From NCBI GenBank assembly GCA_017854655.1, contig JAFMHF010000003.1, positions 645 through 64,644 on the forward strand: DNA of 64,000 nt, given 5' to 3'. Below, one piece after another: positions 35,942 to 53,607 of the stretch (its first letter is position 1; each line of letters opens with the position of its first letter). This DNA comes from Puniceicoccaceae bacterium (GTDB lineage: Bacteria; Verrucomicrobiota; Verrucomicrobiia; Opitutales; Coraliomargaritaceae). The notes beneath the pieces are model-generated. The model saw only the letters and a list, made by a program, of their open reading frames with translations, searched no databases and was not told where the DNA came from. Made by a program: the position numbers and the translations under genes.

Positions 35942-36045
35942 AAAAAATCCTGATAGAAGTTAAATACTGCGAATCCACAGAAGGTGGTTTGCGCAGTGGA
36001 GGTGCCCTCAACGAGAGGGCCTAACCAACTAACTTTATCAGAATA
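35942..36045 (-). promoter_or_regulatory. Structured 104-nt spacer; stop-proximal arm (36030-36043) pairs with the tolC SD region (35948-35962)
   Basis: mRNA UUCUGAUAAAGUUA is complementary to UAACUUCUAUCAGGA (one bulge, one G-U); the AGGA sits 6 nt before ATG; two internal hairpins. Confidence 0.6.
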
Positions 36046-36465
36046 TCAGAGACGCAGATTTACGGTCTGCGCGACGAGCACACACGTGTCCATCAACTCC
36101 GGCGGTGCCTGAGCCTGAACAATGTGAGCAATTTCTTTTAACGTAAAATTCGGTGCGGAGACATCGGATCCCGCAGATTGAAGTGCAGTCAAAGTCGGAA
36201 TGGATTCTCCTTTGTCGATGCACACTTGCGGTAGTTCGACTGCTTTAAGTTCAAGGTCCACACAGGAGTCTTCGTCTGAGAAACGACGCTCCTCAGCTAG
36301 TCCGCTAACACACACAGGCGGACAGTCAGAGCATTTGGCGGAGCTCAACTCGGGAGAGAGGTCCGAGCTTTTGTTAAGACACAGCAACAGTCCTCCGACG
36401 CCACCAAAGAGGACGTTCCAAGCAAACAAGCTCAAGAGAGCAACTGCTGTTATTTTGCGTTTCAC
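36046..36465 (-). CDS. CzcI-like exported Cys-rich leader protein with QAPP motif
   Basis: Hydrophobic N-terminus, CSDC, QAPP plus 17 residues ending LRL; first gene of the czcCBA-like operon. Confidence 0.65.
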   Translation of the reverse strand: MKRKITAVALLSLFAWNVLFGGVGGLLLCLNKSSDLSPELSSAKCSDCPPVCVSGLAEERRFSDEDSCVDLELKAVELPQVCIDKGESIPTLTALQSAGSDVSAPNFTLKEIAHIVQAQAPPELMDTCVLVAQTVNLRL

Positions 36466-36710
36466 TGATTTAACTAGTTCGCCGATAGATCATTTAAGTC
36501 AAGGCTTTGCATTTAATTTTTCACCGATGTTTCTTTGAGTGAGCTGTCTAGGGGGTATATTTACCACACTAGTCGATCATTACAGCTTAACAGATTCATA
36601 TACCAACCGCGTGTTACTCCAGTTGGTATTTGTTCGGGTGAGTTAATCATATTGTTTTGGGAATAATAAATGTTTGTATCATTCTTACCTATTAAGTAAT
36701 CCACTGAGAA

Positions 36711-37097
36711 ATGTTTTCTAACTTCATTCATCTGCTGATGGCGCTCGCCATCTTTAATCCGTTCTGCTGTTGCACGGCGGCGGGTTTGTTTGCGGATGAT
36801 TCTGGAGTGGCAGCGATTCCGAGTTGCTGTGAGAGCACTGGCGATCAGCAGAGTTCGCAAGATCAGCATGATCCAGAGAATTGTCCGCACAAAGCTTTAG
36901 ATGACTTCGAAATTACATCTAATAAGGAGGCGGGCACTCACAACTCCACGCTTTCGCTACTTCCAGTGCTTTTTGTTGTTCGCGACTTGCTGGTCTATGA
37001 ACCAGTTGTCGAATTAATTCATCCCAAGGTGCTAGAGTCAGTGCTTGGGTCCCCACCTGTTTCGTTATCACAGGTGTATTGTGTCTATAGGATCTGA
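36711..37097 (+). CDS. CzcI-like exported Cys/His-rich leader protein with GSPP motif
   Basis: Hydrophobic N-terminus, CCC/CC/CPH, GSPP plus 12 residues ending YRI; first gene of the cus-like operon. Confidence 0.65.
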   Translation: MFSNFIHLLMALAIFNPFCCCTAAGLFADDSGVAAIPSCCESTGDQQSSQDQHDPENCPHKALDDFEITSNKEAGTHNSTLSLLPVLFVVRDLLVYEPVVELIHPKVLESVLGSPPVSLSQVYCVYRI

Positions 37098-37198
37098 TTG
37101 ATCCGTGTTGTTAACGTGCCGCTTTTGTGCGGCGCATCCATGCCACGTCCTATTCGGGATGACAGGCTTTTGAGCAATTACCGAATCAATCATGATCT
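37091..37198 (+). promoter_or_regulatory. Structured spacer; GATCTGATTGAT (37091-37102, over the stop codon) pairs with ATCAATCATGATC (37185-37197) next to the tolC ATG
   Basis: 12-bp complementarity with one bulge, seen directly; internal hairpin GTGCCGC-TTTTGT-GCGGCGC. Confidence 0.6.
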
Positions 37199-38461
37199 AT
37201 GTATACAAAACACTTTTTTAAGGGTGCCTATCGTGGCACTCAACTAAGCCTTCTATTGGGGCTATCCATTTCAATCGCATATGCGGAGAGTCTGAGTCTC
37301 GACCAAGCGCTTGCACGGGCGGAGTCGAAAAATCCTAGCTTAGAGGCTTTTCGTGAAAGTCGCCTGAGTGCAACGGAGCGCGTTGGCGCTTCGAATGCCT
37401 TGCCGAATCCGAAACTACAAGTTTCCTATTTCGGTGAGTCCGTGGAGACACGAACAGGTTCGCAAGAGGCCATCTATTCGTTTAGCCAGACGGTGCCCTG
37501 GCTGAGTAAGCTCTCTACGCGTAAAGATATCGCCTTGAGTGATGCCAACATGAGTGGCTTTGCCTATGAGCACGCTTTGGCCCAGCTTCAAAGGGAGGTA
37601 ACCATTACTTATGTCGAGCTACTTTATTTGAAGAACTCGGTCATAACGACAGAGCAGAACTTAGGGCTCATACAGGACATGCGTTCTATCGTAGAGGAGC
37701 AAGTCAGCGGCGGGGCTTCGGTTAATTCCATGCTTCGTCTGGAGCTGGAGTATGAGCGAAAGCGAGATGATCTGGATAAACTCGAACAGGAGCGAATCGA
37801 ACAACGCCATCGATTAGCTGCCTTGCTTGCGATGCCAGAAGCTCAGCTCTCTTTAGCTGGTGAACTAGAAGGGGTTGGGCCGTCAGTAGACAACGCAAGC
37901 TCGTTCCATCGGAAACTAGTTGAAAATAACCCTGAGCTGCTGGCTCTACGTCAAAGTAGCATTCGAGCTAGCCAGCAAGCGGAGTTGAGCCGATTGGCAC
38001 GTCGTCCTGATTTCACGGTGGGGCTGAACTACATTCAAGTCGATGGCAGCGGTATCGCGGCGCGAGATGCAGGCAAGGATCCATGGAATGTCTCTTTGGC
38101 CGTCAGTCTCCCGATTTGGGCGGGGAAGGATCGTGCCAACATACGTGCGACCAAGGCAAACAGGCGTTCTGTAGACAGCTCCTACCTCAATAGAGAGTTG
38201 GCACTAAAGGCCGAGCTGAGTGCAACGCTGGCGTCCTTTCAGGATAGCGCGAGGCGTATGCAACGCTACGAGGAGACGCTGATCCCGCTGGCGGACCAAG
38301 CTTTGGATAATTCGAGAGCCGCCTACGAGAGCGACCAGCTCAGTGCTCTGGAAATGATCGATAGCGAGCGCTCCTTGCTCGAACTGAAACTGAACTACTG
38401 GCGAGCCGCCGCAAACGCGCGTCAAGCGGTCGCCAAAATCAACGCCCTGATCGGCGAATAA
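37199..38461 (+). CDS. TolC/CusC-family outer-membrane factor
   Basis: LPNPKL, QTVPWLSKL, RPDFTVGLNY, VSLPIW, LEMIDSER. Confidence 0.88.
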   Translation: MYTKHFFKGAYRGTQLSLLLGLSISIAYAESLSLDQALARAESKNPSLEAFRESRLSATERVGASNALPNPKLQVSYFGESVETRTGSQEAIYSFSQTVPWLSKLSTRKDIALSDANMSGFAYEHALAQLQREVTITYVELLYLKNSVITTEQNLGLIQDMRSIVEEQVSGGASVNSMLRLELEYERKRDDLDKLEQERIEQRHRLAALLAMPEAQLSLAGELEGVGPSVDNASSFHRKLVENNPELLALRQSSIRASQQAELSRLARRPDFTVGLNYIQVDGSGIAARDAGKDPWNVSLAVSLPIWAGKDRANIRATKANRRSVDSSYLNRELALKAELSATLASFQDSARRMQRYEETLIPLADQALDNSRAAYESDQLSALEMIDSERSLLELKLNYWRAAANARQAVAKINALIGE

Positions 38462-38485
38462 TCTAGAACGGAAAATTTAAATCGA

Positions 38486-40654
38486 ATGAAAACGAAACAA
38501 ATACTTATGGCTCTCGGGCTGTTAATTCTCGGTCTGCTTGCAGGTCGATTCCTCCTGCCTTCTAAAGCATCGCAAGATGCCGTTGGCCACAACCATGGGA
38601 CTGGGGACGCCGAACTTAGCGAGCCAGAAGTATGGACTTGTTCCATGCACCCTCAGATTCAACAGCCGGAATCAGGCGATTGCCCGATCTGCGGCATGGA
38701 CCTGATTCCCCTCGCAAATGATAGCGACGGTGACGAAGGTGAACGTGTTTTAAGCATGAGCGAGAGCTCGCGCGCATTGGCTGATATTCAAACGACTCTG
38801 GTTAAAGAAGAGTCTCCCGAGATAAACATCCGCCTCGTCGGAAAGCTCGGCTATGACGAGACTTTGGAAAAATCACTCACTGCACGATTTCCTGCACGTA
38901 TCGATGAACTGTTCGTCAACTTTACGGGTGCGAAAGTTCGTGCTGGCGATCCATTAGCCAAGGTCTACAGCCCCGAACTTCGCACCGCACAACGCGAATT
39001 GCTCAATGCTTACCGAGCCGACCCCGAAAGCATCTACACCGTGGCTGCTCGCAAGAAGCTCCGTCTCTGGGATCTGTTGCCCGAGCAAATTGATGCGATT
39101 CTTGATAACGGCGAAGCGCAGGATCACTTTACGATCAAAGCACCGGTGGGCGGGGTCGTTGTGGCCAAAAATGTAAGTGAAGGTGATTACCTTAAAGCAG
39201 GTGAAGTCCTCTTCCGTATCGTTGATCTGAGTAATATCTGGGCTGAACTGGATGCCTACGAGTCAGATCTGGGATGGCTGAAGGTAGGCCAATCAGCGGC
39301 GCTTTCTTTAAAAGCGTTTCCCGGTGAAGCCTTTGAGGGAGAGGTCGCTTTTATCGAACCAGAGATCAATGCGGCTACTCGAACCGTTCCCGTTCGTGTC
39401 AATGTTCCCAACTCGGAAGCTCGCCTGAAACCTGGAATGTTTGTCGAGGCGACAGTTAGTGGTTCAAGCGATAGTAGCGGTGCCTCGATTTTGGTTCCGT
39501 CTACAGCCGTCTTACGGACGGGGCAGCGGGCCGTTGTCTACGTCGAAAAACCTGATGCGGATCGCCCGACTTATGAAGGGCGGGAAATCGAGTTGGGTGT
39601 GAGGGCTGGCGATAGTTACGTTGTTACTTCAGGCCTCGAAGTGGGCGAACGGGTCGTCACTAATGGAGCCTTCAAGATTGATAGTGCACTTCAAATTAAG
39701 GCAAAGCCCAGTATGATGAATCCAGACGCTGGCTCTGAGACTGTCGGACATGACCACAGCGAGATGGCTATGGCTCCGGCTCCACCTGCGCTGTCAGTGG
39801 AAATGGCACTCTCTTTATTGGATGACTATTTGAAATTACAAGCGAGCTTGGCCGCCGACGATCTTGGCGCATCCAAGTCGGCGCTTAAAGCGATGATGCA
39901 GGTAACCGGCCATCAAGGCGATCTACCCGACTTGATACATGCGATGCTCGCAGCGGATAGTCTGGATGCGATCCGGCGTCCGCATTTTGAAACACTTTCG
40001 AATTCGCTGATCGCAGCAGTCATGGATACGCCATCGAGCTTTCCCGAAGGGCTTCTCGTGATGCACTGTCCGATGGTCTATGATGACCGTGGAGCCGATT
40101 GGATTCAAGCGACCGAGCCCCTTCAGAATCCTTACTATGGAGCGATGATGCTGAAATGTGGTGAGGTTAAATCGAAGGTGGATAGTTTGAAAGGCGCTGA
40201 GATCGAAGCGGCTACAGATACGAATTCCGAGAAATTGTTTGTGTCTTTGGTGCCCGGTTATTTGAAGCTGCAAGCCGCCCTTGCTGCGGATGATTTGGAT
40301 GCATCAAAAGTTGCTCTAAAGTCGGTGATGCAGGCAACCGGTCATGAGGGGGATATTCCCGATTTGATACATGCGATGCTTGCAGCAGACAGTCTGGATG
40401 CGATCAGACGGCCTCATTTTGAGACGCTTTCGAACGCACTGATCGAAGCCGTGGAATCCAATCCGAACTCATTTGAAACGGATCTCTATCTGATGCATTG
40501 CCCGATGGTTTACGGCGACCGTGGAGCCAGTTGGCTTCAAGCTGAGGATTCACTCCTGAACCCTTACTTCGGGGACATGATGTTACGCTGTGGCGAAGTG
40601 AAAGGTCTGCTTGTTGAGCCAGAGCTCACTAAAGAAGCTGAACACAAACATTAA
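38486..40654 (+). CDS. CusB-like RND adaptor with heavy-metal-binding domain and two C-terminal DUF3347-like domains
   Basis: WTCSMHPQI...CPICGMDL, MFP body (LKPGMF, TVPVR), tandem YLKLQ..LAADD...HCPMV...NPY.G..ML.CG units. Confidence 0.9.
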   Translation: MKTKQILMALGLLILGLLAGRFLLPSKASQDAVGHNHGTGDAELSEPEVWTCSMHPQIQQPESGDCPICGMDLIPLANDSDGDEGERVLSMSESSRALADIQTTLVKEESPEINIRLVGKLGYDETLEKSLTARFPARIDELFVNFTGAKVRAGDPLAKVYSPELRTAQRELLNAYRADPESIYTVAARKKLRLWDLLPEQIDAILDNGEAQDHFTIKAPVGGVVVAKNVSEGDYLKAGEVLFRIVDLSNIWAELDAYESDLGWLKVGQSAALSLKAFPGEAFEGEVAFIEPEINAATRTVPVRVNVPNSEARLKPGMFVEATVSGSSDSSGASILVPSTAVLRTGQRAVVYVEKPDADRPTYEGREIELGVRAGDSYVVTSGLEVGERVVTNGAFKIDSALQIKAKPSMMNPDAGSETVGHDHSEMAMAPAPPALSVEMALSLLDDYLKLQASLAADDLGASKSALKAMMQVTGHQGDLPDLIHAMLAADSLDAIRRPHFETLSNSLIAAVMDTPSSFPEGLLVMHCPMVYDDRGADWIQATEPLQNPYYGAMMLKCGEVKSKVDSLKGAEIEAATDTNSEKLFVSLVPGYLKLQAALAADDLDASKVALKSVMQATGHEGDIPDLIHAMLAADSLDAIRRPHFETLSNALIEAVESNPNSFETDLYLMHCPMVYGDRGASWLQAEDSLLNPYFGDMMLRCGEVKGLLVEPELTKEAEHKH
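39827..40604 (+). repeat. Tandem DUF3347-like domain duplication in the CusB-like adaptor (offset 432 nt = 144 codons)
   Basis: Both copies share PDLIHAMLAADSLDAIRRPHFETLSN exactly at the protein level. Confidence 0.85.
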
Positions 40655-40673
40655 TCTTTAAGAGAACTTAACA

Positions 40674-41411
40674 ATGAAGAAAAAGGCGATAATCTACAGA
40701 ATGGTGACACCCGATCACCTGTGCCCTTGGGGTATCAAGGCTTGGGACTTATTGAAGCGCAATGGATACGAAGTTGATGACCGTCATCTCGAATCGATGG
40801 ATGCGAATAAGCGATATAAAGAAGAAAACGGTGTCGATGAGACGCCGCAGATCTTGATCGATGGAGAACTCATCGGCGGTTATGACCAATTGCGTGAGCA
40901 CTTGAAGCTCGGCTCCGATCCGAAGGAAGGAAAGACCTATCAACCAATCATCGCCATCTTCGCAGTCACGTTTGGGATGGCCTTGACGACGGCATGGGCA
41001 ATTCACGGTAGTCTCCATATCATACCAGTTCTCGAATTATTTATCGCATTCAGCATGTGCGTGTTGGGTGTTCTAAAACTCCAGAATCTGCAGTCCTACG
41101 CTAACGGATTCATCCAATACGATCTGCTCGCACGGCGTTATGTGCCTTACGCTTACGTCTATGCTTTTATCGAGGCGATTGGTGGAATCTTGATGATCTC
41201 GGGGCTCTTTATCTGGGTCGTCGCTCCCATCGTTCTTCTGGCGACGACGCTTGGTGCTATCTCGATTATAAAAGCAGTCTATATTGATAAGCGCGACTTG
41301 AGCTGCGCCTGTGTCGGCGGGGGGAGCGACGTGCCACTAGGTTTCATTTCCCTCACCGAGAATCTCATGATGATGGGAATGGCAATATGGATGATCTCTA
41401 AAGCCTTCTAA
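40674..41411 (+). CDS. Glutaredoxin-like plus MauE/DoxX-like membrane fusion protein
   Basis: HLCPWG, ETPQILIDGELIGGYD (Grx fold), then four TM segments and LSCACVGG...SLTEN. Confidence 0.8.
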   Translation: MKKKAIIYRMVTPDHLCPWGIKAWDLLKRNGYEVDDRHLESMDANKRYKEENGVDETPQILIDGELIGGYDQLREHLKLGSDPKEGKTYQPIIAIFAVTFGMALTTAWAIHGSLHIIPVLELFIAFSMCVLGVLKLQNLQSYANGFIQYDLLARRYVPYAYVYAFIEAIGGILMISGLFIWVVAPIVLLATTLGAISIIKAVYIDKRDLSCACVGGGSDVPLGFISLTENLMMMGMAIWMISKAF

Positions 41412-41414
41412 ACT

Positions 41415-44400
41415 ATGAGCACCAATCCAAAAAATCCGATCAATCAGCTCATCCGTTTCTGTCTCGAGAACAAGCTGGTCGTCATACTCTTCACCGTCGT
41501 TCTCATCTTCTGGGGAATTGCCGTCGCTCCCTTTGATTGGGAGTCTGATTTCTTGCCACGCGATCCGGTTCCCGTCGATGCGATTCCCGACATCGGCGAG
41601 AACCAGCAAATTGTTTTCACCGAGTGGATGGGGCGCTCTCCGCAGGATATCGAAGATCAAATCACATATCCGCTGACGACTGCATTACTGGGTCTGCCAG
41701 AAGTGAAGACGATCCGCAGTTACTCGATGTTCGGCTTCTCCTCGATCTATATCATCTTCAAGGAAGATGCTGAGTTTTATTGGACGCGTAGTCGCATCCT
41801 CGAAAAGCTCAATAGCCTGCCATCGGGCACCTTGCCGCAAGGAGCGTCACCCCAGTTGGGGCCGGATGCCACCGCCTTAGGGCAAGTCTTTTGGTATACA
41901 CTGGAAGGCATGGACACGGACGGTAATCCAACGGGTGGCTGGGACTTGGACGAGCTACGTAGCACGCAGGATTGGTATGTGCGCTATGCGCTGCAGGGTG
42001 TCGACGGGGTCGCCGAAGTTGCCTCTATCGGGGGCTATGTGAAAGAGTATCAGATCGACGTCGATCCGGATGCACTTCGGACCTATGATGTCGCGTTACA
42101 TGAAGTGTTTGCCGCGGTTAAGGGGAGCAATCTCGATGTCGGAGCGCGCACGATTGAAATCAATGCGGTTGAATACGTGATTCGGGGGCTGGGGTTTATC
42201 GATAGTCTGGATGACCTTCGTAAGACAGTCATTACCCAACGCGACAATGTGCCGGTGACGCTCGATCAAATCGCCTCTATCGAATACGGCCCCGCGCTGC
42301 GGCGTGGCGCATTGGACAAGGCGGGAGCTGAAGCAGTCGGTGGTGTTGTCGTCACGCGTTATGGAGAAAACCCGCTCGAAGTGATCAAGCGGGTGAAAGC
42401 AAAAATCGGTGAAATTTCGGCGGGCATGCCTAAAAAGACGCTTGAAGACGGCACAGTCAGCCAAGTCGAGGTGGTTCCTTTTTATGATAGAACCGGCCTC
42501 ATCTACGAGACCCTCGGCACGCTGGAGAATGCCGTGCGGCAACAGATACTCGTCACGATCATCGTTGTCGTGCTCATGGTGATGCATTTGCGCAGCGCTT
42601 CATTGATCGCAGGTGTGTTGCCACTCGCGGTGCTCTTTTCTTTTATCGGCATGAAGCTGTTTAAAGTCGATGCGAACGTCGTCGCGCTATCTGGAATCGC
42701 GATCGCGATTGGCACCATTGTGGATATGGGTGTTGTTCTGGTTGAGAACATCCTCAAGCATATTGACAAAGCACCACCGGATGAGAATCGTCTGGAAGTC
42801 GTCTACCGAGCTTGTAGCGAAGTGGGTGGGGCAGTGGTCACCGCTGTGCTCACAACGGTGATCAGCTTTCTGCCTGTCTTCACGATGCAGGCTGCAGAGG
42901 GTAAATTGTTTCAGCCGCTCGCTTATACCAAAACGTTCGCGCTGATCGGTTCTATCCTTGTGGCGATTACGATTATACCTCCACTGGCACACTGGGTATT
43001 GGCGAGACGGATACGAAAAAAAGCGAAGGCCGTCCCTAGATGGCTCGGCTTCCTCAAAAAGTATTCCCGTTATGTGATTTGTCTTACAGTCGCACTCATC
43101 ACTGCGTGGTTCTTGGCCGCAGACTGGAAGCCATTGGGTGTAGAAGCAACTTTGATGAACTTTCTCTTTGTCGTTCTCACCATTGGTGGACTTTTAGGAT
43201 TCTTCTATGTGTTCGTCCATTTCTATGGGCGTATCCTCGCTTTCCTCTTAAAAGCGAAAACAGTTTTTCTCGCTGGTTGTGTGTGTATTATTCTTTTCGG
43301 GTTCACAATCTGGTTGGGCTGGGGGAAGGTTTTTGGGTGGATGCCTGAATTTGTTAAAAAATCTGATCCCTATGTAGCAGTGGCCCATGCAGTGCCCGGG
43401 TTGGGCAAAGAATTTATGCCGGACCTCGATGAAGGTTCCTATCTTTTGATGCCAACGACTATGCCGCATGCCTCCATCGGCGAGGTCATGGATGTGCTGC
43501 GCAAACAGGACATGGCAATCAACGCGATTCCAGAAGTGGAGATGGCGGTGGGTAAATTGGGGCGCGTTGAAAGTCCGCTCGATCCTGCGCCGATTTCCAT
43601 GATCGAAACGATTATCAATTATAAGTCGGAGTATCTAAGCGATGAGGATGGTCGGATCCTGACTTTTGCTTATGATCACGCTGCGGGCGTGTTTGAGCGC
43701 GACGCATCCGGCGATCTAGTAGCGGATGAAGACGGTCGTCCTTTCCGACAGTGGCGCGACGAGATTCAGAGTCCTGACGATATCTGGGATGAAATCGTAA
43801 AGGCAGCCACGATCCCCGGGACGACCTCCGCACCTAAGCTTCAGCCTATTGCCGCACGCATCGTCATGCTGCAAAGTGGTATGCGGGCACCGATGGGCCT
43901 GAAAGTCTACGGCCCGGATTTGGAAACACTCGAACAGGTCGCGTTGGACATCGAGGACTCTCTCAAGCAGGTGCCTTCCATCAAAGCCGAGGCCGTGTTG
44001 GCCGACCGAATTGTCGGCAAACCCTATTTGGAAATCGACATCGATCGTGATGCCATTGCCCGCTTCGGTATCACAATTAAAATGGTGCAGGACGTGATCG
44101 AGGTTGCCGTTGGCGGAAAGCCGATTACAATGACGGTCGAAGGTCGTGAACGCTATCCTGTCCGCGTGCGGTATATGCGCGAGCGGCGTGACAGCATCGA
44201 ATCCATTGAACAGGTCTTAGTCGCTGCACCCGATGGCACTCAAGTTCCACTGCGTGAGCTGGCTTCGATTAACTACGTCAGAGGACCTCAAGTGATTAAG
44301 AGTGAGGACACCTTTCTTGTCGGCTACGTCATCTTTGATAAGCGCGACGGTTTTGCTGAGGTTGAAGTCGTTGAGCAGGCTAGCGAGTTTCTTCAGCAAA

Positions 44401-46833: not shown

Positions 46834-47451
46834 TTAATGGTCGTGTCCTTCGTGACTATCTTCTCCGTGTTCGCAGACACAGGCATACTCCTTGTATTTG
46901 CAAGTCGGGCAGTCGCTGAGGTTTAGATTGAATTTCTCGCGAACGGTTTTCGATTTCGCATCTGCCTTAATCGAGAGAACGATCGGTAGGTTGTTACCCT
47001 CTGGCAGAGCTTTATCGGACAGTAGAACGCTGCCTTTCTTCGTGAAGCGTAGACGGACAGGGTTTTGACGGTCACCACCTATAAGCGAGAGCGCCTGATC
47101 TTTCGGAGCGACAGCTTTGCCGTCGTCATTGAGGAACGTGATCTGTATGAGTCGCGTATCAGTCACGAAGAATTCTAGATGGGGTTCAACCGATGTGATG
47201 ATACGACCGCCATTGGGGCCTGCTTTCACATCGCCATGGTCGTGCTCATCATGATCGTCTTCGTGAGCCTCGTGGTCATGGTCGGAGTGGTCCTCTTCTG
47301 GCTTTGCCTTGGCATGCGCTGCATGATCGTGGCCTTCGTGAGCAGAATGGTCATGGTCCGCATCATTTCCGTGGTGATCCGCATAGCTGGTGCTCCACGA
47401 AAGCAAAGCGAATGTGATCAACGTAGTGAGTAGTGTTTTTTTGTATTTCAT
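46834..47451 (-). CDS. Exported His-rich putative metallochaperone
   Basis: Signal peptide, HxxHxH-rich tract, AGPNGGR domain, C-terminal CPTCKYKEYACVCEH. Confidence 0.75.
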   Translation of the reverse strand: MKYKKTLLTTLITFALLSWSTSYADHHGNDADHDHSAHEGHDHAAHAKAKPEEDHSDHDHEAHEDDHDEHDHGDVKAGPNGGRIITSVEPHLEFFVTDTRLIQITFLNDDGKAVAPKDQALSLIGGDRQNPVRLRFTKKGSVLLSDKALPEGNNLPIVLSIKADAKSKTVREKFNLNLSDCPTCKYKEYACVCEHGEDSHEGHDH

Positions 47452-47479
47452 AGTATATGTATGTATTTGTAATGTGTGA

Positions 47480-50400
47480 TTATTCAGACGCAGCAGATTT
47501 GCGTTGGACGGATGTTTCCGCCGACTTGCGGCAGAAGGTGTAGAAAATCGCAGGCGTCACACCGAGCCCCAGTAGGGTGGAGGTGACGAGGCCTCCGACG
47601 ATGACGACTGCAATTGGATTTAGGATTTCTTTTCCCGGTTCATCGGTTGCTAAGAGAAGCGGCACCAGAGCAAGGCCAGCAGAGATTGCAGTCATGAGAA
47701 TCGGGATTAGGCGTTCCTGCGTGCCTCGTTCGACCATCTTTCGGGTAAATCGCTCGCCTTCATGGCGCATTAGGTGAAGATAGTGCGAAATCAGCATAAT
47801 ATTATTACGCGCCGCAATCCCACTCACCGCGATGAAACCGACAAGAGTGGCGATACTAATATTGTTCAGCGTCATCCCCGTCAGGAATATACTGCCAACT
47901 AGAGAGATCGGCACGATGGTGAAGACTAGTAGCACAAACGCAAAATTCTTGAAGTAACTGTAGAGTAGAAACGAGATGACCAAGAGCACGATTGCCGATG
48001 TGATCAGAATCGTCCGTTTTGCTTTGGCCTGTGCTTCATATTCGCCTTCGTAAGAGAGCGTATAGCCTTCAGGGAGCTTCACCCGTTCGTTGACCTCGCG
48101 CTGCAACTCCTCGACCGCGGCATTCAAGTCGTCGACGGTCGGATTGATGGAAACCACAAAACGTCTCACGGTGTTTTCCCGCAAGATGTTGTTGGGCCCC
48201 GTCGCGTGCCTTATATCCGCGACATAACTGAGTGGGATTCGCTGCCCGCTCAGAGTGTCAATGTAGAGCTTCGATAGTTTTTGGGGTGATTCTCGCCACT
48301 CCAATGGCAAGCGTATGACTAGGTCGTAGACGCGTTGCCCTTCGTAGATTTCACTCACAGCTTCGCCTCCCATGAGCGCAGAGAGTTCCGCATTGAGGGC
48401 ACCTGGTGTCACTCCATAAGCCATGGCGCGTTTACGATCCACCTCGATTCGAAGTTGTGGGATGGGTGCCTGCTGCTCGACACGTGCTTCTTCCATTCCC
48501 GGCACTTCGCGTGCGATCTCGGCAATTTCAGTGCCGATGCGACGCAACTCATCCAAATCGGGGCCGAAGACCTTAACGGCTACCTTGGCTGAGACACCAC
48601 TGAGCATGTGACCGATACGGTCTGCCAATGGCCCGCTGAGCGCACTAAAAGTTCCAGGGATGGTCTGCATGGTGCTGCGAATATCTTCCAAGATCTCGCT
48701 ACGTTCACGCTTCACGTCGTGAGTGAATTCGATGTCGATTTCCACGGTCGAGACAGGCACAACATGATCCCCACGTTCGGCGCGGCCGACCCGATAGCCG
48801 ACTGTTTCAATTTCAGGGATCTTCAGTAGTAGATCCTGAGCGGTATCGGCTAGTTCACGTGTTTGTTTAAGTGAGGTTCCTGGAGCTGTCGTCATGGCGA
48901 CTAGAACGGTAGGCTCCCGAAATGCCGGCAGGAAGTTGCCGCCCATTTTTGTAAATGAGATGCCTGCAGCCACAACAAGTGCTCCCGTTGCGAACAGCAC
49001 AATCAATGGTTGCGAGAGTGAAAAACGCAACCAAGTCACATTGAACAGTTTCTTGAAACCTCGCTCGATGACACCGTCTGCATGCTTTTGCCCCGCTTTG
49101 GGCTTCAGCAAATACGAACTCAGAACTGGTATCACTGTGAGTGAAACGAGAAAGGACGCTGCCATACTGACAATAGTAGCGACTGCAATCGGAGTGAACA
49201 GTCGCCCCTCGACCCCGCTCAGAGCCATCAGCGGCAAGAAAACCAGAATAATCAGCACGGTTGCATATAAGATCGAGGATCGGACTTCGGCAGATGCTTT
49301 GGCGATGACCTCTAGTCTATTTCGTGGTTCATCGAGCATCGCATTCTCCCGTAGTCGTCGGAATACGTTCTCGACATCCACAATGGCATCATCGACCACC
49401 ATACCAATGGCCACCGCAAGCCCACCGAGTGTCATTGAGTTGACGCTCAAATCCAAGAGGCCAAATACCAGCACTGTCATTCCTAAAGATAATGGAATCG
49501 CGGTGAGAGTAATCAGTGTGATACGCACATTCAGTAAGAAAAGGAACAAGATCACGGCCACCATGATGGCACCATCACGCAAGGCTTCTTCCAGATTCCC
49601 CACGGCAAGGTCGATGAAGTCGGACTGACGATACAATGTCACAAGTTCCACGCCCTCGGGCATTGAGGTTTTCAAATCCTCCAACGCGGCTTCGACTTGA
49701 TCGGTGAGTGCCAATGTGTCGAACCCAGGGGACTTCGTGACGCTTAGGATCACGCCGGGATAGCCCTTCGTGTCCGCGTCATCCAATAGCTTGGTTCCCA
49801 TGCCTGCATCTCCGCGCATCGGTTCGATGTCCCAAGCAACTGTAGCGACATCTTTGATACGGATCGGGCGATCATTGACGTGTGTGACCACCGTATTACC
49901 AATTGCATCGAGGTCTGTCGTCATGGCTAGGTTGCGCACCATAATCTCTTGGGCGGACTCGGTTAGAAAGCCTCCAGTTCGATTACTCACCGCATTGGCG
50001 GCAGCTTCTCGAAGTGCTTCGTAGTCAATCCCCAACGCCAACATTTTATCTGGATTGGGCTGAACTTGCAGTTGTTTGACACCGCCCCCCATGCCGAGCA
50101 CTTCAGCCACCCCAGGGATGGATTGCAGACGCCTGGAGACCGTCCAGTCGGCAATGGTTCGAAGGTCCATCGGCTCTGTGTTCCCCGATGGGTCAACGAG
50201 TCCTACCAGCATGATATTGCCCATTAAGGAGGCGACTGGCGTCATGTAAGGGCTGACCCCATCCGGAAGTGTTTCACTGGCTCCTGTTAGGCGCTCCTGC
50301 ACGAACTGACGTGCTTGATAGATATCGGTGCCCCATTCGAATTCGATGAAGATCAAGGAAAGGCCAATATCGTTTACCGATCGTAGACGCGTCACGCCAG

Positions 50401-50629
50401 TGACTCCCATCAATGAGTTTTCAAGTGGTATGGTTACCAGGGTTTCGACTTCTTCAGGGGAGAAACCTGCGGATTCCGTGAGAATCGTGACGGTTGGCTT
50501 GGTTAAGTCCGGCAGCACTTCAACAGGAAGCTCGCTGGCTGTTTTGATGCCTAAGATGAAGAGCACCAAGGCCAGTGCTAATATGAGTGGCCTTTGCGAA
50601 AGCGAAAACTGAATGAGCTTATTAAGCAT
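47480..50629 (-). CDS. CusA/CzcA-family heavy-metal RND permease (third system)
   Basis: LPVEVLPD, IGMVVDDAIVDVEN, EGRLFTPIA, RLIPILMTA, GKEILNPIA. Confidence 0.9.
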   Translation of the reverse strand: MLNKLIQFSLSQRPLILALALVLFILGIKTASELPVEVLPDLTKPTVTILTESAGFSPEEVETLVTIPLENSLMGVTGVTRLRSVNDIGLSLIFIEFEWGTDIYQARQFVQERLTGASETLPDGVSPYMTPVASLMGNIMLVGLVDPSGNTEPMDLRTIADWTVSRRLQSIPGVAEVLGMGGGVKQLQVQPNPDKMLALGIDYEALREAAANAVSNRTGGFLTESAQEIMVRNLAMTTDLDAIGNTVVTHVNDRPIRIKDVATVAWDIEPMRGDAGMGTKLLDDADTKGYPGVILSVTKSPGFDTLALTDQVEAALEDLKTSMPEGVELVTLYRQSDFIDLAVGNLEEALRDGAIMVAVILFLFLLNVRITLITLTAIPLSLGMTVLVFGLLDLSVNSMTLGGLAVAIGMVVDDAIVDVENVFRRLRENAMLDEPRNRLEVIAKASAEVRSSILYATVLIILVFLPLMALSGVEGRLFTPIAVATIVSMAASFLVSLTVIPVLSSYLLKPKAGQKHADGVIERGFKKLFNVTWLRFSLSQPLIVLFATGALVVAAGISFTKMGGNFLPAFREPTVLVAMTTAPGTSLKQTRELADTAQDLLLKIPEIETVGYRVGRAERGDHVVPVSTVEIDIEFTHDVKRERSEILEDIRSTMQTIPGTFSALSGPLADRIGHMLSGVSAKVAVKVFGPDLDELRRIGTEIAEIAREVPGMEEARVEQQAPIPQLRIEVDRKRAMAYGVTPGALNAELSALMGGEAVSEIYEGQRVYDLVIRLPLEWRESPQKLSKLYIDTLSGQRIPLSYVADIRHATGPNNILRENTVRRFVVSINPTVDDLNAAVEELQREVNERVKLPEGYTLSYEGEYEAQAKAKRTILITSAIVLLVISFLLYSYFKNFAFVLLVFTIVPISLVGSIFLTGMTLNNISIATLVGFIAVSGIAARNNIMLISHYLHLMRHEGERFTRKMVERGTQERLIPILMTAISAGLALVPLLLATDEPGKEILNPIAVVIVGGLVTSTLLGLGVTPAIFYTFCRKSAETSVQRKSAASE

Positions 50630-51827
50630 CCGACGCCTCGCTTTCCTTTTGTCGACGCTTCAAGAGCATCTGCGTGGTAACTAACGCGAAGAGCGTCACT
50701 AATCCCGCATATATCATGAGTGGCTTAGTGAGAGCTCCACTGGCTTTAGAGTTCTCAGCATGGCCATGATCGTCTGGATCGCCAGAGGCACTGTCTTCCT
50801 CGGTCAGCTCGGATCCATCTTCGGCATGGGCATGCCCATGAGCAGCATCAAGTGCTTCCTTGAGTGACATACCTGAGCCTCCACCGACAAAACTGAGTGC
50901 ATAGGAACCCTGTGCAACGACTTCATCGCCTGGGAATACCCCGTTGAGCACTTCGACATATGCGTCGTTTTCTCCGCCGAGTGTGACGGGGACTCGAATG
51001 AAGGCATTTGGCAGCTCATAGTCTTTAACAAAAACGACTCGGCTGGCGGGGTCTCCTTGAATTGCAGTGCGTGGAACTGAGAGGACAAAAGGCTGTGAAT
51101 CGAGCACGACAGAGAATTCTGCCCGCATGCCAGGACGCAATTTTCCATCTACGTTATCTAATTCAAAAATCGCTTCGATGGTGCCTGCCTCGCGGTCTGC
51201 TTCGACGCCAAAGCGTGTCAGTTCGGCTTCGAACACCTCATCGCCGAGTGCTGGGATGTGAATTCGTGCAGCAGTCCCAATCGCGACTTGAGCCGCTTCT
51301 TGTTCCGGGATTTTGGCCACAGCCCACAACTTTGAGCGGTCTGAAATATCCAGTAATTCGGCCGATGGCTCCACTGGTTGTCCAAGTCTGACATGTGAGG
51401 CGACGACTAAGCCACCTTGAGGTGCCTTGAGCTCCACACTGGGCGGTGGATCCCCCAACTGACGACTTTCGACGACAGCCAAAACTTCGCCTGCCTCAAC
51501 GGTATCGCCTTCGAACGCATTCAGTGCGCTGACCCGCCCTGCAATACGTGATGACAGGACTGAGCGACTGGACGGAATTTCTTCGATGCGTCCGATCGCG
51601 AAGACTGTGGTTTCAAAGTCACGCTCCTCGGCCTCTTCAGTTTGAATGCGGAGGTTTTTGACCGCAATCTCGTCTAGAATGATTGTATTTTGTGCACGCG
51701 CTTCTTCAGCTGCGTGTATTGTGGAGATTGAGAGTAGAGAAAGGAAAATTATGCTATTTAGTTTCATTGGAAAGGTCTCCGATAGAGTGAGTCGAAAGGT
51801 TGCGAGCAGTAGCTGCGCGCCATTCAA
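50622..51827 (-). CDS. RND periplasmic adaptor; likely start near 51767 (MKLNS)
   Basis: LKAPQGG, LWAVAKIPE, LRPGMRAEF, VVAQGSY; His-containing tail with C-terminal TM. Confidence 0.85.
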   Translation of the reverse strand: MNGAQLLLATFRLTLSETFPMKLNSIIFLSLLSISTIHAAEEARAQNTIILDEIAVKNLRIQTEEAEERDFETTVFAIGRIEEIPSSRSVLSSRIAGRVSALNAFEGDTVEAGEVLAVVESRQLGDPPPSVELKAPQGGLVVASHVRLGQPVEPSAELLDISDRSKLWAVAKIPEQEAAQVAIGTAARIHIPALGDEVFEAELTRFGVEADREAGTIEAIFELDNVDGKLRPGMRAEFSVVLDSQPFVLSVPRTAIQGDPASRVVFVKDYELPNAFIRVPVTLGGENDAYVEVLNGVFPGDEVVAQGSYALSFVGGGSGMSLKEALDAAHGHAHAEDGSELTEEDSASGDPDDHGHAENSKASGALTKPLMIYAGLVTLFALVTTQMLLKRRQKESEASDA

Positions 51828-53052
51828 TCAAGATTTGCTCGAGCTCATGCCAGAGATCGAGTTGAGCGGTTTGGATGTTTAAGTGCTGTTCTTGCACTCG
51901 AAAGACTTCGCCGAGGTCGACGAGTCCAGCAGCATACGCTGCATTGATGTCTTTGTGGTTTTGCTCCACCAACTTCAGTGCGCTTTCTTTGTAGGTGGAC
52001 GCTTGTTTATAGGCTGCAGCGGCATTACTGCGCAGTGCTTCAGCATCGTTTTGTAACTGCAGCGACATAGCGTTCATCTCATGGTAAATCTGCTTTTCGC
52101 GAAAGCGACTGGCTTCAACTTCACCACGGTAATTACTCCGGAGGGGGAGTGGAATCGAGACACCGATCCCGAAGAAACGATCTCGACCTAAACCATCCGG
52201 CTCATCGACGGATTTCTCTTCTTCAAAGAAAATTTCTACTGCGATGTCAGCCCAGCGACTGGCTTTAGCCAAATTTGTTTGCTCCTGCGCGATATCCGCA
52301 AGTAAGGCTCGAAGTTGATACTCGGGATGCTGCTTTAGGTCATCCAAGTTGAATGCTTCCATCTCAGGTAGCGTTGGCATTTGGACTGAATCGGCGAGCA
52401 CCTCTAGCTCACGATCTGGCTCAAGGCCAAGGAGGCTACGTAAGTCTCCAAGTGCTCGATTACGTTCTTTCGTCCGATTTTCAATCTCCTGCTTTACTGA
52501 AAACAGTGCGACACGCACCTGATTCAAAGCGAGTGTCGACGCCTCGCCAGCGTCGATTCTCTTCTCCATAAATGCCGCAAATTCCTCCTGCAGCCGAATC
52601 ATTCCACTCAGCAGAGACAGTTGTTTGTCGAGACTGGCGATCAGTGCCATAGAGCCTTCGACATCGCGTATCAGCAACCTCTGCTGATTGAGAAGTTCCG
52701 CCTCGGCGAGTTTGACCTCAATGGCAGAGACGTTCTTTAGTCGCTTGAGTCGATTGGTAATCGGAAAGCGTTGCTCGAAGCCAATGGAGTAAGACTGTTC
52801 CCCCTCATCGTTGAAAGCGCGATCGGACGCATAACCCAAATTGAGTTCAGGGTTGTCGAGCCTGCCTGCGTATTGCGAGTAAGCACCCGCTTCATTAATT
52901 GCAGAACGAGCAGCCTGTAACGACTGGTTCTTCTGCAAAGCCAGTGCAACAGCGTCTTGGCTTGTGAGTTTTAGAGAGCTCTCTGGCGTAGCATATGCCA
53001 GAGAAGCGTAGAAAATGAATAATGTTGTCAGTAAATAGTTATATGTGTGCAT
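51754..53052 (-). CDS. TolC-family outer-membrane factor
   Basis: LDNPELNL, EQRFPIT, GVSIPLPL, YAAGLVDLGEV. Confidence 0.88.
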   Translation of the reverse strand: MHTYNYLLTTLFIFYASLAYATPESSLKLTSQDAVALALQKNQSLQAARSAINEAGAYSQYAGRLDNPELNLGYASDRAFNDEGEQSYSIGFEQRFPITNRLKRLKNVSAIEVKLAEAELLNQQRLLIRDVEGSMALIASLDKQLSLLSGMIRLQEEFAAFMEKRIDAGEASTLALNQVRVALFSVKQEIENRTKERNRALGDLRSLLGLEPDRELEVLADSVQMPTLPEMEAFNLDDLKQHPEYQLRALLADIAQEQTNLAKASRWADIAVEIFFEEEKSVDEPDGLGRDRFFGIGVSIPLPLRSNYRGEVEASRFREKQIYHEMNAMSLQLQNDAEALRSNAAAAYKQASTYKESALKLVEQNHKDINAAYAAGLVDLGEVFRVQEQHLNIQTAQLDLWHELEQILIEWRAATARNLSTHSIGDLSNETK

Positions 53053-53150
53053 GAAAAAACCTGTTTAGTTGAAATCGTCATAAGACACGTTCGAACGTGC
53101 CAAAGTCACACGAAGGAAATCCTACGTGCATATTTCACTAATCAGGTTTT
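53053..53150 (-). promoter_or_regulatory. Structured 96-nt spacer; arm over the stop codon (53132-53150) pairs with the tolC initiation region (53056-53075)
   Basis: mRNA AAAACCUGAUUAGUGAAAU is complementary to AUUUCAACUAAACAGGUUUU (one mismatch, one bulge); internal palindrome CACGTTCGAACGTG. Confidence 0.65.
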
Positions 53151-53607
53151 AAATTCGGAGCACTGTCGTGCGCACACACTGCTCTAATGTGCCACAGAAA
53201 ATGGGTGGCGCTCGTGTCGCTAAACGTATCTGAGGAGCCGCGTTTGCTTTAATGATCGGAACAAATAGCTGATACGAGTGGTTTGCGGCTACTGGTTTCT
53301 TAATCGAAATAAAATCAGCGACTCGCTGTATCGGCTCATTCGATGAGCTGATCAAAATGTCGATGCAGTGTTGGTCACTAACTGCAGAAAGGCCATCATC
53401 TGCTTCGCCGGAATGGGAATCGTGATTGTGTGATTCCGTCTCATGTCCATGGCATGTGTCACCATGATCAGAGTGTTGCCCCGTGAGCACATGACCAAAA
53501 TTATGATCATGCAGGCACAGCACCGCCCCACCAGCAGTAGCTAGTAGGCCGTTCATTGCCATCATCAGGGTAAGGCAATATGCTGTGTATTTTTTTAACA
53601 TGAACAA
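53149..53607 (-). CDS. CzcI-like exported His/Cys-rich leader protein with RAPP motif
   Basis: Hydrophobic N-terminus, LCLHDH and His-rich middle, TRAPP plus 17 residues ending LRI; first gene of the third RND operon. Confidence 0.7.
   Translation of the reverse strand: MFMLKKYTAYCLTLMMAMNGLLATAGGAVLCLHDHNFGHVLTGQHSDHGDTCHGHETESHNHDSHSGEADDGLSAVSDQHCIDILISSSNEPIQRVADFISIKKPVAANHSYQLFVPIIKANAAPQIRLATRAPPIFCGTLEQCVRTTVLRI

Follow-up and report, generated by a model that had tools for sequence, protein, structure and literature searches.

A mobile island in a marine Verrucomicrobium carries three efflux operons for heavy metals, and in each of them the first gene encodes a small exported Cys/His leader. 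This raises the question of whether these leaders serve the pump as proteins or control its translation while they are being made. All three operons have the order leader, OEP (PF02321), CusB/CzcB-like adaptor and CusA/CzcA-family RND pump (Table 1; the window is the whole 64,000-nt stretch of DNA analysed). A sequence-only reading had proposed that each nascent leader controls the following genes through a late PP motif and a stem over the OEP initiation region. The parts it had listed are all present, namely N-terminal signals, Cys/His-rich middles, the motifs QAPP, GSPP and RAPP (leaders A, B and C, respectively), the ends LRL, YRI and LRI, and spacers whose stop-proximal end pairs with the OEP initiation region. 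It had also suggested that the leaders replace transcription factors. No regulator gene was found between 28 and 55 kb and leader C has a conserved promoter, which is compatible with this suggestion but does not demonstrate it. In metatranscriptomes, single RNA contigs span leader to OEP, showing that the two are co-transcribed in situ, and no RNA contigs were found upstream of the leader C promoter.

Table 1. Features of the three leader-headed efflux operons (positions in the window).
Feature	Position	Strand	Remarks
CDF, operon A	28761-29558		
CusA/CzcA RND, operon A	29558-32668		
MFP, operon A	32690-34552		
OEP (TolC/CzcC-like), operon A	34574-35941	-	
Spacer RNA A	35942-36045	-	104 nt, three-way junction
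Closing stem A, 3' strand	35947-35963	-	…CUAUCAGGAU; then UUUUUU-AUG
Closing stem A, 5' strand	36029-36044	-	AUUCUGAUAAAGUUAG
Leader A	36046-36465	-	139 aa; 48 relatives, APP and tail invariant
PP codons, leader A	36100-36105	-	QAPP, no Arg; placed from stop 36046-36048 plus 17 codons
Leader B	36711-37097	+	128 aa
PP codons, leader B	37053-37058	+	GSPP
Competing local hairpin, spacer B	37090-37104	+	
Closing stem B	37095-37112 with 37173-37192	+	takes in the UGA stop
Spacer RNA B	37098-37198	+	101 nt; two hairpins enclosed by stem
OEP, operon B	37199-38461	+	
HMBD-containing CusB-like MFP, operon B	38486-40654		
Grx-MauE/DoxX fusion, operon B	40674-41411		
CusA/CzcA RND, operon B	41415-45074		
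DUF3347 protein, operon B	45099-45671		
CDF, operon C	45842-46765		
Unknown 205-aa protein, operon C	46834-47451		
CusA/CzcA RND, operon C	47480-50629		
MFP, operon C	50622-51827		
OEP, operon C	51754-53052	-	
Spacer RNA C	53053-53148	-	96 nt
Closing stem C, 3' strand	53056-53075	-	AUUUCAACUAAACAGGUUUU; then UUC-AUG
Closing stem C, 5' strand	53132-53150	-	AAAACCUGAUUAGUGAAAU; with two A of the UAA stop
Leader C	53149-53601	-	150 aa from likely ATG start
R-A-P-P codons, leader C	53203-53214	-	PP = 53203-53208; predicted arrest site
Sigma-70-like promoter of leader C, conserved	53615-53644	-	TTGACT, 18 nt, TG-n-TATTCA; ~10 nt before ATG

Leaders A and C are homologous (BLASTP E 8e-8) and belong to a family of 136 clusters at 50% identity that has no Pfam or NCBIfam model and in which every named member is from Verrucomicrobiota. 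The family signature consists of a TM/signal helix, LCLH, CxD, 48±2 residues, R-[AG]-P-P, usually exactly 17 residues, and L-R-[LIV]-stop. Leader A contains a TM/signal helix with W-N...GG, followed by LCLN, CxxCxxxC, CxD, QAPP and a 17-residue tail, and leader C contains a TM/signal helix, LCLHDHxFGH, CH, HCxD, canonical RAPP and the 17-residue tail IFCGTLEQCVRTTVLRI. The ORF listing for leader C (53149-53607, 152 aa) starts at a TTG at 53607, but relatives begin at the ATG at 53601, which is therefore the likely true start. Among 82 superfamily sequences, the ligand residues C, H, H, C and D are near-invariant, and W-N and G are invariant polar residues within the TM helix. The LCLH-CxD distance ranges from 29 to 57, while 150 of 159 proteins have a distance of 48±2 residues between CxD and R[AG]PP. 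AlphaFold places the C/H/D ligands on three short adjacent strands after the TM helix and predicts residues 100-135 as coil, with low confidence (pLDDT 69). An OEP gene and a CzcB/CusB-type adaptor gene lie downstream of the leader in every relative examined. The leaders are under purifying selection at the protein level while synonymous sites vary, which supports the view that they are conserved, translated genes.

Leader B has a hydrophobic N-terminus with NPFCCC, followed by CC, HDxxxCPH, GSPP and a 12-residue tail VSLSQVYCVYRI. Its last eight codons are near-invariant at the nucleotide level, and the residue before PP varies among its relatives (S/A/P/L/D). It is not detectably related to A or C. 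The three leaders are therefore two homologues and one analogue, and the architecture seen three times in the earlier reading does not represent three independent inventions.

The spacer RNAs have a common fold, in which a stop-proximal strand and the 17-20 nt just before the OEP AUG form a closing stem around two hairpins. Fold energies were -39.8, -37.4 and -33.6 kcal/mol for A, B and C (z = -5.6, -3.6 and -5.2), and none of 200 dinucleotide shuffles was as stable as the native spacers. The spacer measures 104 nt at all eight A loci examined and 90-96 nt at C loci, and pairing of the 5' and 3' ends was found in 26 spacers of all types (mean z -4.2). The core of the closing stem, UCCUG/CAGGA, is universal, with compensatory changes beside it in distant members. 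In the alignment to a covariance model built from C spacers, nine of 17 closing-stem pairs had changed on both sides, and 91% of closing-stem cells were paired versus at most 47.5% in slid controls; the stem thus covaries across subfamilies. The two inner hairpins covary in the C family as well, and spacer C shows compensatory changes in both. AGGA is kept before the OEP, and most genes in the window have no SD. The placement of the stop codon relative to the anti-SD strand is strictly conserved; its identity varies, with UGA in most types and UAA in C and L042. These features of the spacer RNA are conserved and are not due to chance.

Such an RNA could act autonomously, as a riboswitch, protein site, attenuator or element of RNase processing or stability, in which case leader translation would be irrelevant. 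It is structured and covarying, a search of 28-56 kb with 4227 Rfam covariance models returned no match at E≤1, and the A and C types have a U-tract after the stem. In addition, in one metatranscriptome a contig of the C spacer alone had a word depth of 165-290 versus 62 for the OEP, but related strains whose reads accumulate on the conserved stem can account for the difference. The U-tract is absent from B, and neither the sequence nor the length of the inner hairpins and junction is constrained, so there is no conserved ligand pocket; conservation is confined to the stop-to-start stem. When 240 kb were searched with the C covariance model, matches occurred only at leader-OEP junctions, never apart from a leader stop codon. 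We therefore consider an autonomous RNA element very improbable.

The position of the stem shows where a ribosome could act on it. In A and C the first 1-6 nt after the stop precede the closing stem, and in B the stem includes the stop itself. A ribosome with PP in its P site still has 57 nt to go to the first nucleotide of the stop in A and C, and 42 nt in B. As a ribosome protects only ~15 nt downstream of its P site, a stall at PP cannot melt the stem as it does in SecM or CutF. The same distance counts against the version of the sequence-only reading, which follows CutF/SecM logic: a metal-induced stall at the PP codons would itself place the ribosome to melt the stem and turn the operon on. 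This is the published model for CutF, and the loci studied here have both the PP motifs and the RBS-occluding stems, but the stalled ribosome would be clear of the stem. A conserved alternative pairing between tail RNA and stem was sought and not found; a candidate helix between the tail and the OEP start showed no covariation, and synonymous diversity in the tail is high. Regulation of this kind is thus quite improbable at these loci.

The best model in our judgement, though a tentative one, is translational coupling gated by an upstream arrest. An anti-SD-like strand, which reads UCCUGAU in the A/C family, follows the leader stop at a distance of 0-6 nt and pairs, across the two-hairpin insert, with an AGGA segment 4-8 nt upstream of the OEP start. 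Only a ribosome at the last leader codons or the stop covers and unwinds this strand. We infer that OEP translation is coupled to finished leader translation, so that the OEP, and presumably the pump genes behind it, would be translated in step with leader completion. In leader C and most relatives, R-[AG]-P-P is 19 codons before the stop. As a ribosome arrested at that distance cannot open the stem, the motif would most likely act as a gate: in the arrested state the stem would be closed and the pump off, and after release the ribosome would reach the stop, open the stem and turn the pump on. By analogy with the CruR proposal, release may be metal-dependent, driven by folding or pulling of the exported mini-domain (the LCLH, H and CxD strands), whose last ligand motif is a fixed 48±2 residues away from the predicted arrest site. 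Leaders A (QAPP) and B (xSPP) share the coupling device, with a pause that is probably weaker or otherwise different.

The case for arrest differs among the leaders. RAPP and RGPP are the two strongest arrest motifs, are EF-P-refractory and are otherwise depleted from proteomes (PMC12992588). RAPP is invariant across the C family (22 sequences), and RAPP (51) or RGPP (20) is found in 71 of 95 PP-bearing cluster representatives. The number of residues after PP is 17 in leaders A and C, as the sequence-only reading had counted, and 12 in B; among the PP-bearing representatives 17 is modal (71, with 16 residues in another 15). The Arg that is essential in tested RAPP peptides is absent from A and B, leaving only C canonical, and 30 of 125 family representatives (24%) have no PP at all. 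As these members still keep the tail and the RNA stem, PP arrest is dispensable for the core device. The missing Arg in A and B and the PP-less members, together with the low AlphaFold confidence, count against gated coupling.

Of the proteins studied in this gene position, CzcI is the nearest, and its reported action on the pump in trans (PMC10127602) is a further point against gated coupling. The leaders could likewise be stable membrane-anchored or periplasmic metal-binding partners of the pump, either quenchers or metallochaperones acting in trans, with PP as a linker, the tail as a binding helix and the stem serving ordinary coupling or stoichiometry. Amino-acid conservation over the whole length, including the tail after PP, would be expected of such a protein, as would the invariant polar residues of the TM helix and the loss of PP in some members, and CzcI has a similar C-x-H ... 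C-x-(C/D) layout along with its reported quenching of CzcCBA. However, RAPP and RGPP are strong arrest motifs in which ordinary proteins are depleted, yet they prevail in this family at a constant position; the distance of 48±2 residues is kept across a predicted coil, and the placement of the stop against the anti-SD strand is strict. On balance we find this explanation rather doubtful.

The conserved tail is not predicted by a pure PP arrest leader and is left unexplained by the gate model. It is selected at the amino-acid level, with fixed length and an L-R-[LIV] end; Leu(-3) and Arg(-2) are more than 90% conserved in 82 sequences, with six different codons used for the Arg, C-terminal extensions are almost absent, and in all three families conservation is highest at the very C-terminus. 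These features would fit a leader whose C-terminal …T-x-V-L-R-[LIV] slows release at the stop, which would keep the ribosome on the anti-SD strand and the OEP site open, with pulling by the exported domain modulating the pause and R[AG]PP as a second checkpoint or tunnel contact. The retention of tail and stem in PP-less members also agrees with this, as does a stem that only a ribosome at the stop could open. However, we know of no termination-arrest peptide ending in R-[LIV], the stop varies between UGA and UAA, and a class-II PDZ/protease degron (hydrophobic-x-hydrophobic-COOH) would account for the same conservation. We consider a termination pause unlikely. The two ideas may be combined in a so far undescribed two-checkpoint nascent-chain switch, to which we give only a small chance. 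In such a switch R[AG]PP would be the metal-released gate and …TxVLR[LIV]-stop would pause termination where the ribosome unzips the anti-SD:SD stem. The three-way junction would keep the OEP start by the stop, so that the same ribosome might cross the base of the helix and start again, by termination-reinitiation or a bacterial counterpart of shunting, and paralogous leaders, each with its own ligands (Cys-rich A, CCC/CPH B, His-rich C), could give metal-specific pump control on a mobile island without a transcription factor.

If gated coupling holds, metal-sensing nascent leaders extend beyond proteobacterial DUF2946 proteins, and a wiring opposite to that of SecM and CutF is possible, in which arrest keeps the operon off and termination turns it on. 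It would also suggest that efflux operons on mobile islands carry their own regulation into a new host, without host regulators. The protein family and the structured RNA are both unannotated and offer a means of annotating HME-RND operons in Verrucomicrobiota. They also provide a natural case in which RAPP/RGPP keeps a constant distance of 17 residues to the C-terminus and a conserved peptide follows it, so that the roles of arrest and termination could be separated.

The concept of a CutF/CruR-type metal-sensing leader is already published for DUF2946. CutF-like/DUF2946 proteins are reported to be most often encoded upstream of RND OEP/CusC/CzcC genes, and CzcI is placed in that superfamily (PMC9973294). 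The Pfam model PF11162 (DUF2946, gathering threshold 23.7 bits) gave leader C a score below threshold (12.8 bits, E 0.2), with a weak alignment ending exactly at PP (profile 24-117 of 117), and did not match A or B even at E 10; at E<1 it detected 5 of 22 C-family and 2 of 82 superfamily members. The motifs shared family-wide are LCLH and CxD, not the conserved CXXC/CxxxC of DUF2946; A adds CxxCxxxC, and B has CCC/CC/CPH. Leaders A and C (PP at -19/-18) fall outside the filter of Öztürk et al. 2023, which requires PP within 15 residues of the C-terminus, and leader B (PP at -14/-13, 128 aa) passes their criteria for length, PP and gene order.

CutF of Rhodobacter capsulatus (cutFOG; PMC9973294; 10.1101/2025.02.05.636593) is likewise a small Sec-exported protein that combines a Cys/His metal motif with a proline motif at the C-terminus. 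Its gene directly precedes one for metal detoxification, an intergenic stem shields the next RBS, and the protein acts in cis as a nascent chain. Unlike in CutF, PP is here 17 (A, C) or 12 (B) residues from the C-terminus, with a conserved tail after it, and CxD and LCLH take the place of CxxxC as ligand motif. The RNA forms a three-way junction, and since its closing stem starts from the stop, a PP stall cannot melt it. CruR (Bp2923, Bordetella pertussis, DUF2946; PMC9426467; arrest PMC12992588) shares the RAPP arrest motif and a conserved distance from metal motif to RAPP (45 residues from CXXC, PMC9426467, versus 48±2 here), and its proposed metal-relieved arrest fits the geometry here. It differs in having RAPP 3 residues from the C-terminus and a dispensable signal peptide, and in being proteobacterial. 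Its output is Rho-dependent termination before a TonB-dependent importer, with metal as the off signal, whereas here the output would be the opening of an SD-sequestering stem before an exporter, with metal as the on signal.

CzcI (Cupriavidus metallidurans pMOL30, upstream of czcCBA) is also encoded immediately before an HME-RND OEP gene, and has a signal sequence, a C-x-H ... C-x-x-C/C-x-D layout, R-A-P-x near the C-terminus and a marginal score on the DUF2946 model (15.7 bits). Against the family profile, hhalign gave a probability of 28% (E 6e-4 in a single comparison), aligning C-x-H and C-x-(C/D). In contrast to the family, CzcI has RAPD, not RAPP, 8 residues from its end, no TVLR[LIV] tail, and a 75-nt spacer with a local hairpin and no stop-to-start closing stem. 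ApdA, ApdP, ApcA and SecM (RAGP) share the R-A-P-P/R-G-P-P core arresting at the peptidyl-transferase centre, an exported or membrane N-terminus that supplies force, and a downstream RBS that sits in structure. In those systems the stall is within reach of the structure and means on, and Sec/YidC components are regulated, whereas in the present family 19 codons separate the motif from the stop, and the target is a metal efflux operon. The leaders described here are a new, unannotated branch of the recently described CutF/CruR type, apparently wired differently from the published cases.

Each of the three heavy-metal efflux operons in the window begins with a short leader ORF (A, B and C, lettered as their operons), whose basic N-terminus leads into some 20 hydrophobic residues (maximum Kyte-Doolittle 1.75-1.93). 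The leaders are rich in Cys and His (7 C/1 H in A, 7 C/5 H in B and 6 C/12 H in C), carry a late PP motif (QAPP, GSPP and RAPP, respectively) and end in LRL (A), YRI (B) and LRI (C), with 17 residues between PP and the end in A and C and 12 in B. Downstream of each are a TolC/CzcC-like outer-membrane gene (OEP, PF02321), a CusB/CzcB-type adaptor and a pump that passed the TIGR00914 (CusA/CzcA) cut-off in all three operons. The sequence-only reading had described these ORFs, the coordinates of their PP codons and the 17 residues after PP in two leaders correctly, and its observation of three leader-spacer-OEP units is confirmed, well beyond chance.

Leaders, spacers and neighbouring features (window coordinates; spacers run from leader stop to OEP AUG)
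Feature	Position	Strand	Size or remark
Leader A	36046-36465	-	139 aa
Leader B	36711-37097	+	128 aa
Leader C	53149-53607	-	relatives begin at ATG 53601, giving 150 aa
Spacer A			104 nt
Spacer B			101 nt
Spacer C			96 nt
Operon A adaptor	32690-34552		620 aa
Operon B glutaredoxin-MauE/DoxX fusion	40674-41411		between adaptor and pump
Operon B RND pump	41415-45074		1219 aa
Operon B DUF3347 protein	45099-45671		follows the pump gene
ORF without Pfam match	21-5138		1705 aa
Wadjet-like defence cluster and nearby peptidase U49 (Lit-like) gene	5485-11942 and 16468-17394
TrwC relaxase	13630-16458	-
TraG/TraD-like coupling protein	21869-23335
PcfJ-like, AAA and DUF3987 genes	25057-28403
Large serine recombinase	55225-57021

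The operons are carried by an apparent integrative mobilisable/conjugative island (window 1-57021). GC content is about 0.48-0.52 and rises to 0.56-0.57 after 58 kb, from where core genes are found (DEAD helicase, inositol monophosphatase, SurA-like and Mfd). The Wadjet-like cluster encodes an unknown 420-aa protein, MksE, a 1247-aa DUF3584/JetC-like protein and a JetD-like protein. The glutaredoxin-MauE/DoxX fusion gene of operon B is unusual, and the pump encoded next to it matched the CusA/CzcA model in three stretches, indicating a large insertion. The adaptor of this operon bears HMBD and DUF3347 domains, and the DUF3347 protein encoded after the pump is weakly similar to the Leptospira LIC13259 family. 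The operon A adaptor has an N-terminal extension of about 290 residues without a Pfam match.

None of the leaders had a significant match in Pfam or NCBIfam. BLASTP showed A and C to be homologues (E 8e-8); no relationship of B to either could be detected, and its homology to them was rejected, as both BLASTP and hhalign were negative. Database relatives (48 of A, 9 of B and 33 of C) are all unnamed or 'hypothetical', and their named hosts are Opitutales/Opitutaceae, Thalassobacterium/Coraliomargarita and Puniceicoccaceae. Loci of the A type and of a D type occur in Thalassobacterium or Coraliomargarita, which are cultivable. A profile built from A and C retrieved 136 clusters at E≤1e-3 from 1.84 billion representatives, nearly all of them 130-155 aa long and aligned end to end. 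The family signature consists of a basic N-terminus, a hydrophobic helix with W-N and G…G, L-C-L-H with a His about six residues on, a variable Cys/His-rich stretch, C-x-D, about 48 residues, R-[AG]-P-P, about 17 residues and T-x-V-L-R-[LIV]-stop. PP occurs within the last 30 residues in 95 of the 125 full-length representatives (RAPP in 51, RGPP in 20) and is absent from the other 30. Exactly 17 residues follow it in 71 representatives and 16 in 15, and about 90 end in [LFIM]-R-[LIVC]. CxD and R[AG]PP are 46-51 residues apart (mode 48) in 153 of 159 proteins, and the separation of LCLH and CxD is 29-57. QAPP is conserved as such within the A subfamily, while the B family has xxPP with variable residues before PP. 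AlphaFold2 (82-sequence alignment) predicted, with only moderate confidence (pLDDT 69, pTM 0.38), a helix at 2-23, three short strands at 26-30, 36-40 and 80-84 on which the conserved residues (C, H, H, C and D) lie, coil at 100-135 and a short tail helix at 138-145. This verrucomicrobial protein family, with its fixed R[AG]PP-17-residue-stop design, is new and unannotated.

Each spacer folds so that its stop-proximal end pairs with the 17-20 nt directly upstream of the OEP AUG, forming a closing stem around two hairpins, which bears out the spacer lengths and the pairing with the OEP initiation region proposed earlier. Fold energies were -39.8, -37.4 and -33.6 kcal/mol for A, B and C (z = -5.6, -3.6 and -5.2), and 200 shuffled sequences included no fold of equal stability. 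Spacer length is characteristic of the type, at 104 nt in all eight A loci, 98-102 nt in B and 90-96 nt in C. C-type loci have closing stems whose strands hardly vary in sequence, and two inner hairpins that vary freely yet remain paired; RNAalifold gave 33 pairs, 11 with double changes. Six distant loci with about 20-25% protein identity (L042, L049, L051, L052, L054 and L056) and two with PP-less leaders (L011 and L012) have spacers of 70-143 nt, and all retain the stem, its 5' strand starting 1-6 nt past the stop. The core pairs UCCUG(A/U)(U/C) with …CAGGA(A/U)U, 4-8 nt before the AUG, and adjoining positions show compensatory changes (GAU-AC/GU-AUC, GAC-AA/UU-GUC and GUU-UC/GA-AAC). A duplex test on 26 spacers gave a mean z of -4.2.

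A covariance model built from C-type spacers only, searched against 240 kb on both strands, matched solely at leader-OEP junctions, always at full length, and also recognized A-type and two distant types. The covariance-model alignment is biased towards the model; in it, both sides were changed in 9 of the 17 pairs of the closing stem, 91% of cells were paired versus at most 47.5% in slid controls, and no shuffle reached the observed covariation. The closing stem and inner hairpins thus covary, a check that the sequence-only reading had named. Rfam gave no match to the spacer RNA, and assignment to a known RNA family was rejected. The start regions of 38 ORFs in the window mostly have A/U-rich upstream sequences instead of a Shine-Dalgarno motif, so the AGGA conserved upstream of all three OEP genes stands out, as does its UCCU partner. 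The three-way-junction RNA, which is conserved and closed by a UCCUG/CAGGA stem, is new.

The leaders of L011 and L012 (L011:5001-5640 and L012:5001-5620, Thalassobacterium maritimum/sedimentorum) form a fourth type, which ends in …ESLPESAWLTEYYLQTTVLRV and has no PP, but retains the same UUCCUGAUAC…GUAUCAGGAA closing stem over a 143-nt spacer. The arrest motif has therefore been lost here while tail and RNA were kept.

That a PP stall itself opens the stem is at odds with the geometry. Downstream of the P site, a ribosome extends over about 15 nt. In RAPP arrest the two Pro codons occupy the P and A sites (PMC12992588), which in A and C places the P site 57 nt before the first stop-codon base. 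As the stem begins at or after the stop, a ribosome stalled at PP in these leaders would leave about 40 nt of tail mRNA free and the stem untouched; in B, PP lies 12 codons from the stop, likewise out of reach. In contrast, once the stop codon has entered the A site, the ribosome covers the UCCUG strand, which makes the architecture a probable translational-coupling device set off by arrival at the stop. Arrest at PP can only lower the arrival of ribosomes there. The sole candidate for an alternative structure relaying a PP stall to the stem was a helix between the QCVR tail codons and the OEP start (AUGCACACAU) from MFE folds, but it is without covariation or compensatory changes, loses 3 of 8 pairs and is broken in several relatives, and it was rejected. 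Since the 30 of 125 representatives without PP retain tail and stem, the core device would work without arrest.

Where arrest at PP occurs, it would leave the stem closed and the pump off. Metal bound by an exported N-terminal domain might then supply the releasing force and relieve the arrest, as proposed for CruR of Bordetella, whereupon the ribosome would reach the stop, the stem would open, OEP translation would rise and the pump would be on. If metal does relieve arrest in this way, the logic is coherent. The motif is canonical in C, but QAPP in A and GSPP in B lack the Arg that is essential in CruR (PMC9426467) and in Apd-type peptides (PMC12992588), so a RAPP-type stalling motif applies to one of the three leaders only. 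The earlier interpretation is partly supported. The leaders are very probably cis-acting, translated and linked to an RNA switch, after the pattern of CruR and of CutF from Rhodobacter, but stem opening by the stall disagrees with the geometry, C alone has a canonical arrest motif and the general concept had been published before.

This arrest-gate model does not explain why the tail has a fixed length and an L-R-[LIV] end set directly against the stop codon. Synonymous diversity of the tail codons in the C family is 0.37, as high as elsewhere in the ORF, and Arg(-2) is encoded across the superfamily by six codons (CGU, CGA, CGG, CGC, AGG and AGA). The tail is therefore conserved as protein and not as RNA, and an RNA-level cause was rejected for A and C. 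In the B family, where an RNA-level cause may apply, the last eight codons are almost invariant in nucleotides, down to 42% protein identity, and a local hairpin at the end of leader B (37090-37104) competes with its closing stem. A PEP-CTERM or an outer-membrane-protein beta-signal C-terminus was also rejected, because hydrophobicity is too low (mean KD 0.6-0.8) and by inspection the leaders are not beta-barrels. The tail may be a termination-slowing peptide that keeps the stem open longer. It may instead act as a C-terminal degron of the hydrophobic-x-hydrophobic kind, recognized by a PDZ protease in the periplasm; rapid degradation after export has been reported for CutF (PMC9973294). Directly upstream of one leader is a gene for a 538-aa trypsin-like (HtrA/DegP-type) protease (L051:820-2436), a single case that is of interest only because the leader ends are of the kind bound by PDZ proteases. 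Alternatively, the tail may be a helix that affects the pump in trans, a mode of action reported for CzcI (PMC10127602).

The sequences were found in estuarine and marine metatranscriptomes, where RNA contigs cover leader, spacer and OEP in all three operons. Coverage ends just inside the leader ORFs (4-16 nt in), with none upstream, and promoters are predicted to start transcription about 10-25 nt upstream of the leader ATGs, so that contigs end about 23-28 nt downstream of the predicted starts. Such ends would fit the loss of terminal sequence during assembly, though the leader mRNAs may instead be leaderless. The promoter of leader C, about 10 nt before the ATG, is sigma-70-like and conserved (TTGACa, 18 nt, TG-n-TATTCA), and the B and C promoters (36640-36710 and 53611-53650) have a common block, TTG(TTT/ACT)-TGGGAATAAT…TGTAT(C/T)CAT. 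A MerR-type operator in the C promoter (GGAATAATTCC, a palindrome between -35 and -10) was not supported, as relatives do not share the second half-site and an 18-nt spacer is ordinary. No MerR, two-component or ECF regulator gene was found within 28-55 kb, which fits the earlier suggestion that no transcription factor is needed; post-transcriptional control is compatible with this, not proven by it. In metatranscriptome run X29, a contig of the C spacer alone (53048-53160) had a word depth of 165-290 versus 62 for OEP, and in runs X25 and X29 contigs break at the conserved 3' strand (53046-53077). The high depth could be due to a stable processed RNA fragment or to related-strain reads piling up on the conserved stem, and this multi-strain pile-up confounds its use as proof of such a fragment.

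The concept put forward in the sequence-only reading is the published DUF2946 mechanism. CruR contains CXXC and RAPP at a 45-residue spacing, with RAPP three residues from the end, and copper relieves its arrest, after which Rho terminates transcription (PMC9426467). CutF combines a Sec signal with CxxxC and PPP, the cutO Shine-Dalgarno is covered by a stem-loop, and copper induces stalling (PMC9973294). Öztürk et al. found RND-system OEP genes to be the commonest neighbours of CutF-like proteins and placed CzcI in the CutF-like superfamily (PMC9973294), so the suggested reinterpretation of CzcI-position genes had already been made. The published CutF-like filter (PP ≤15 residues from the C-terminus, PMC9973294) would have excluded the A/C family. 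Pfam DUF2946 membership was rejected, since C scored 12.8 bits against a threshold of 23.7 and only 2 of 82 relatives matched at E<1; the weak alignment of C ends exactly at PP. CzcI of pMOL30 (L057:15177-15608) scored 15.7 bits on DUF2946 and ends …NARAPDRPQWQRLA, where RAPD-RPQWQRLA has its near-RAPP motif 8 residues before the end of the protein. Its alignment to the family profile, at 28% probability, covers the C-x-H and C-x-(C/D) motifs, and its spacer has a local hairpin, unlike the stop-to-start stem of the present family. CzcI and the present family may plausibly be remotely related. In SecM and CutF the stall itself opens the stem, whereas the wiring implied here is the opposite, and this implied inverted logic, with arrest off and release on, is also new.
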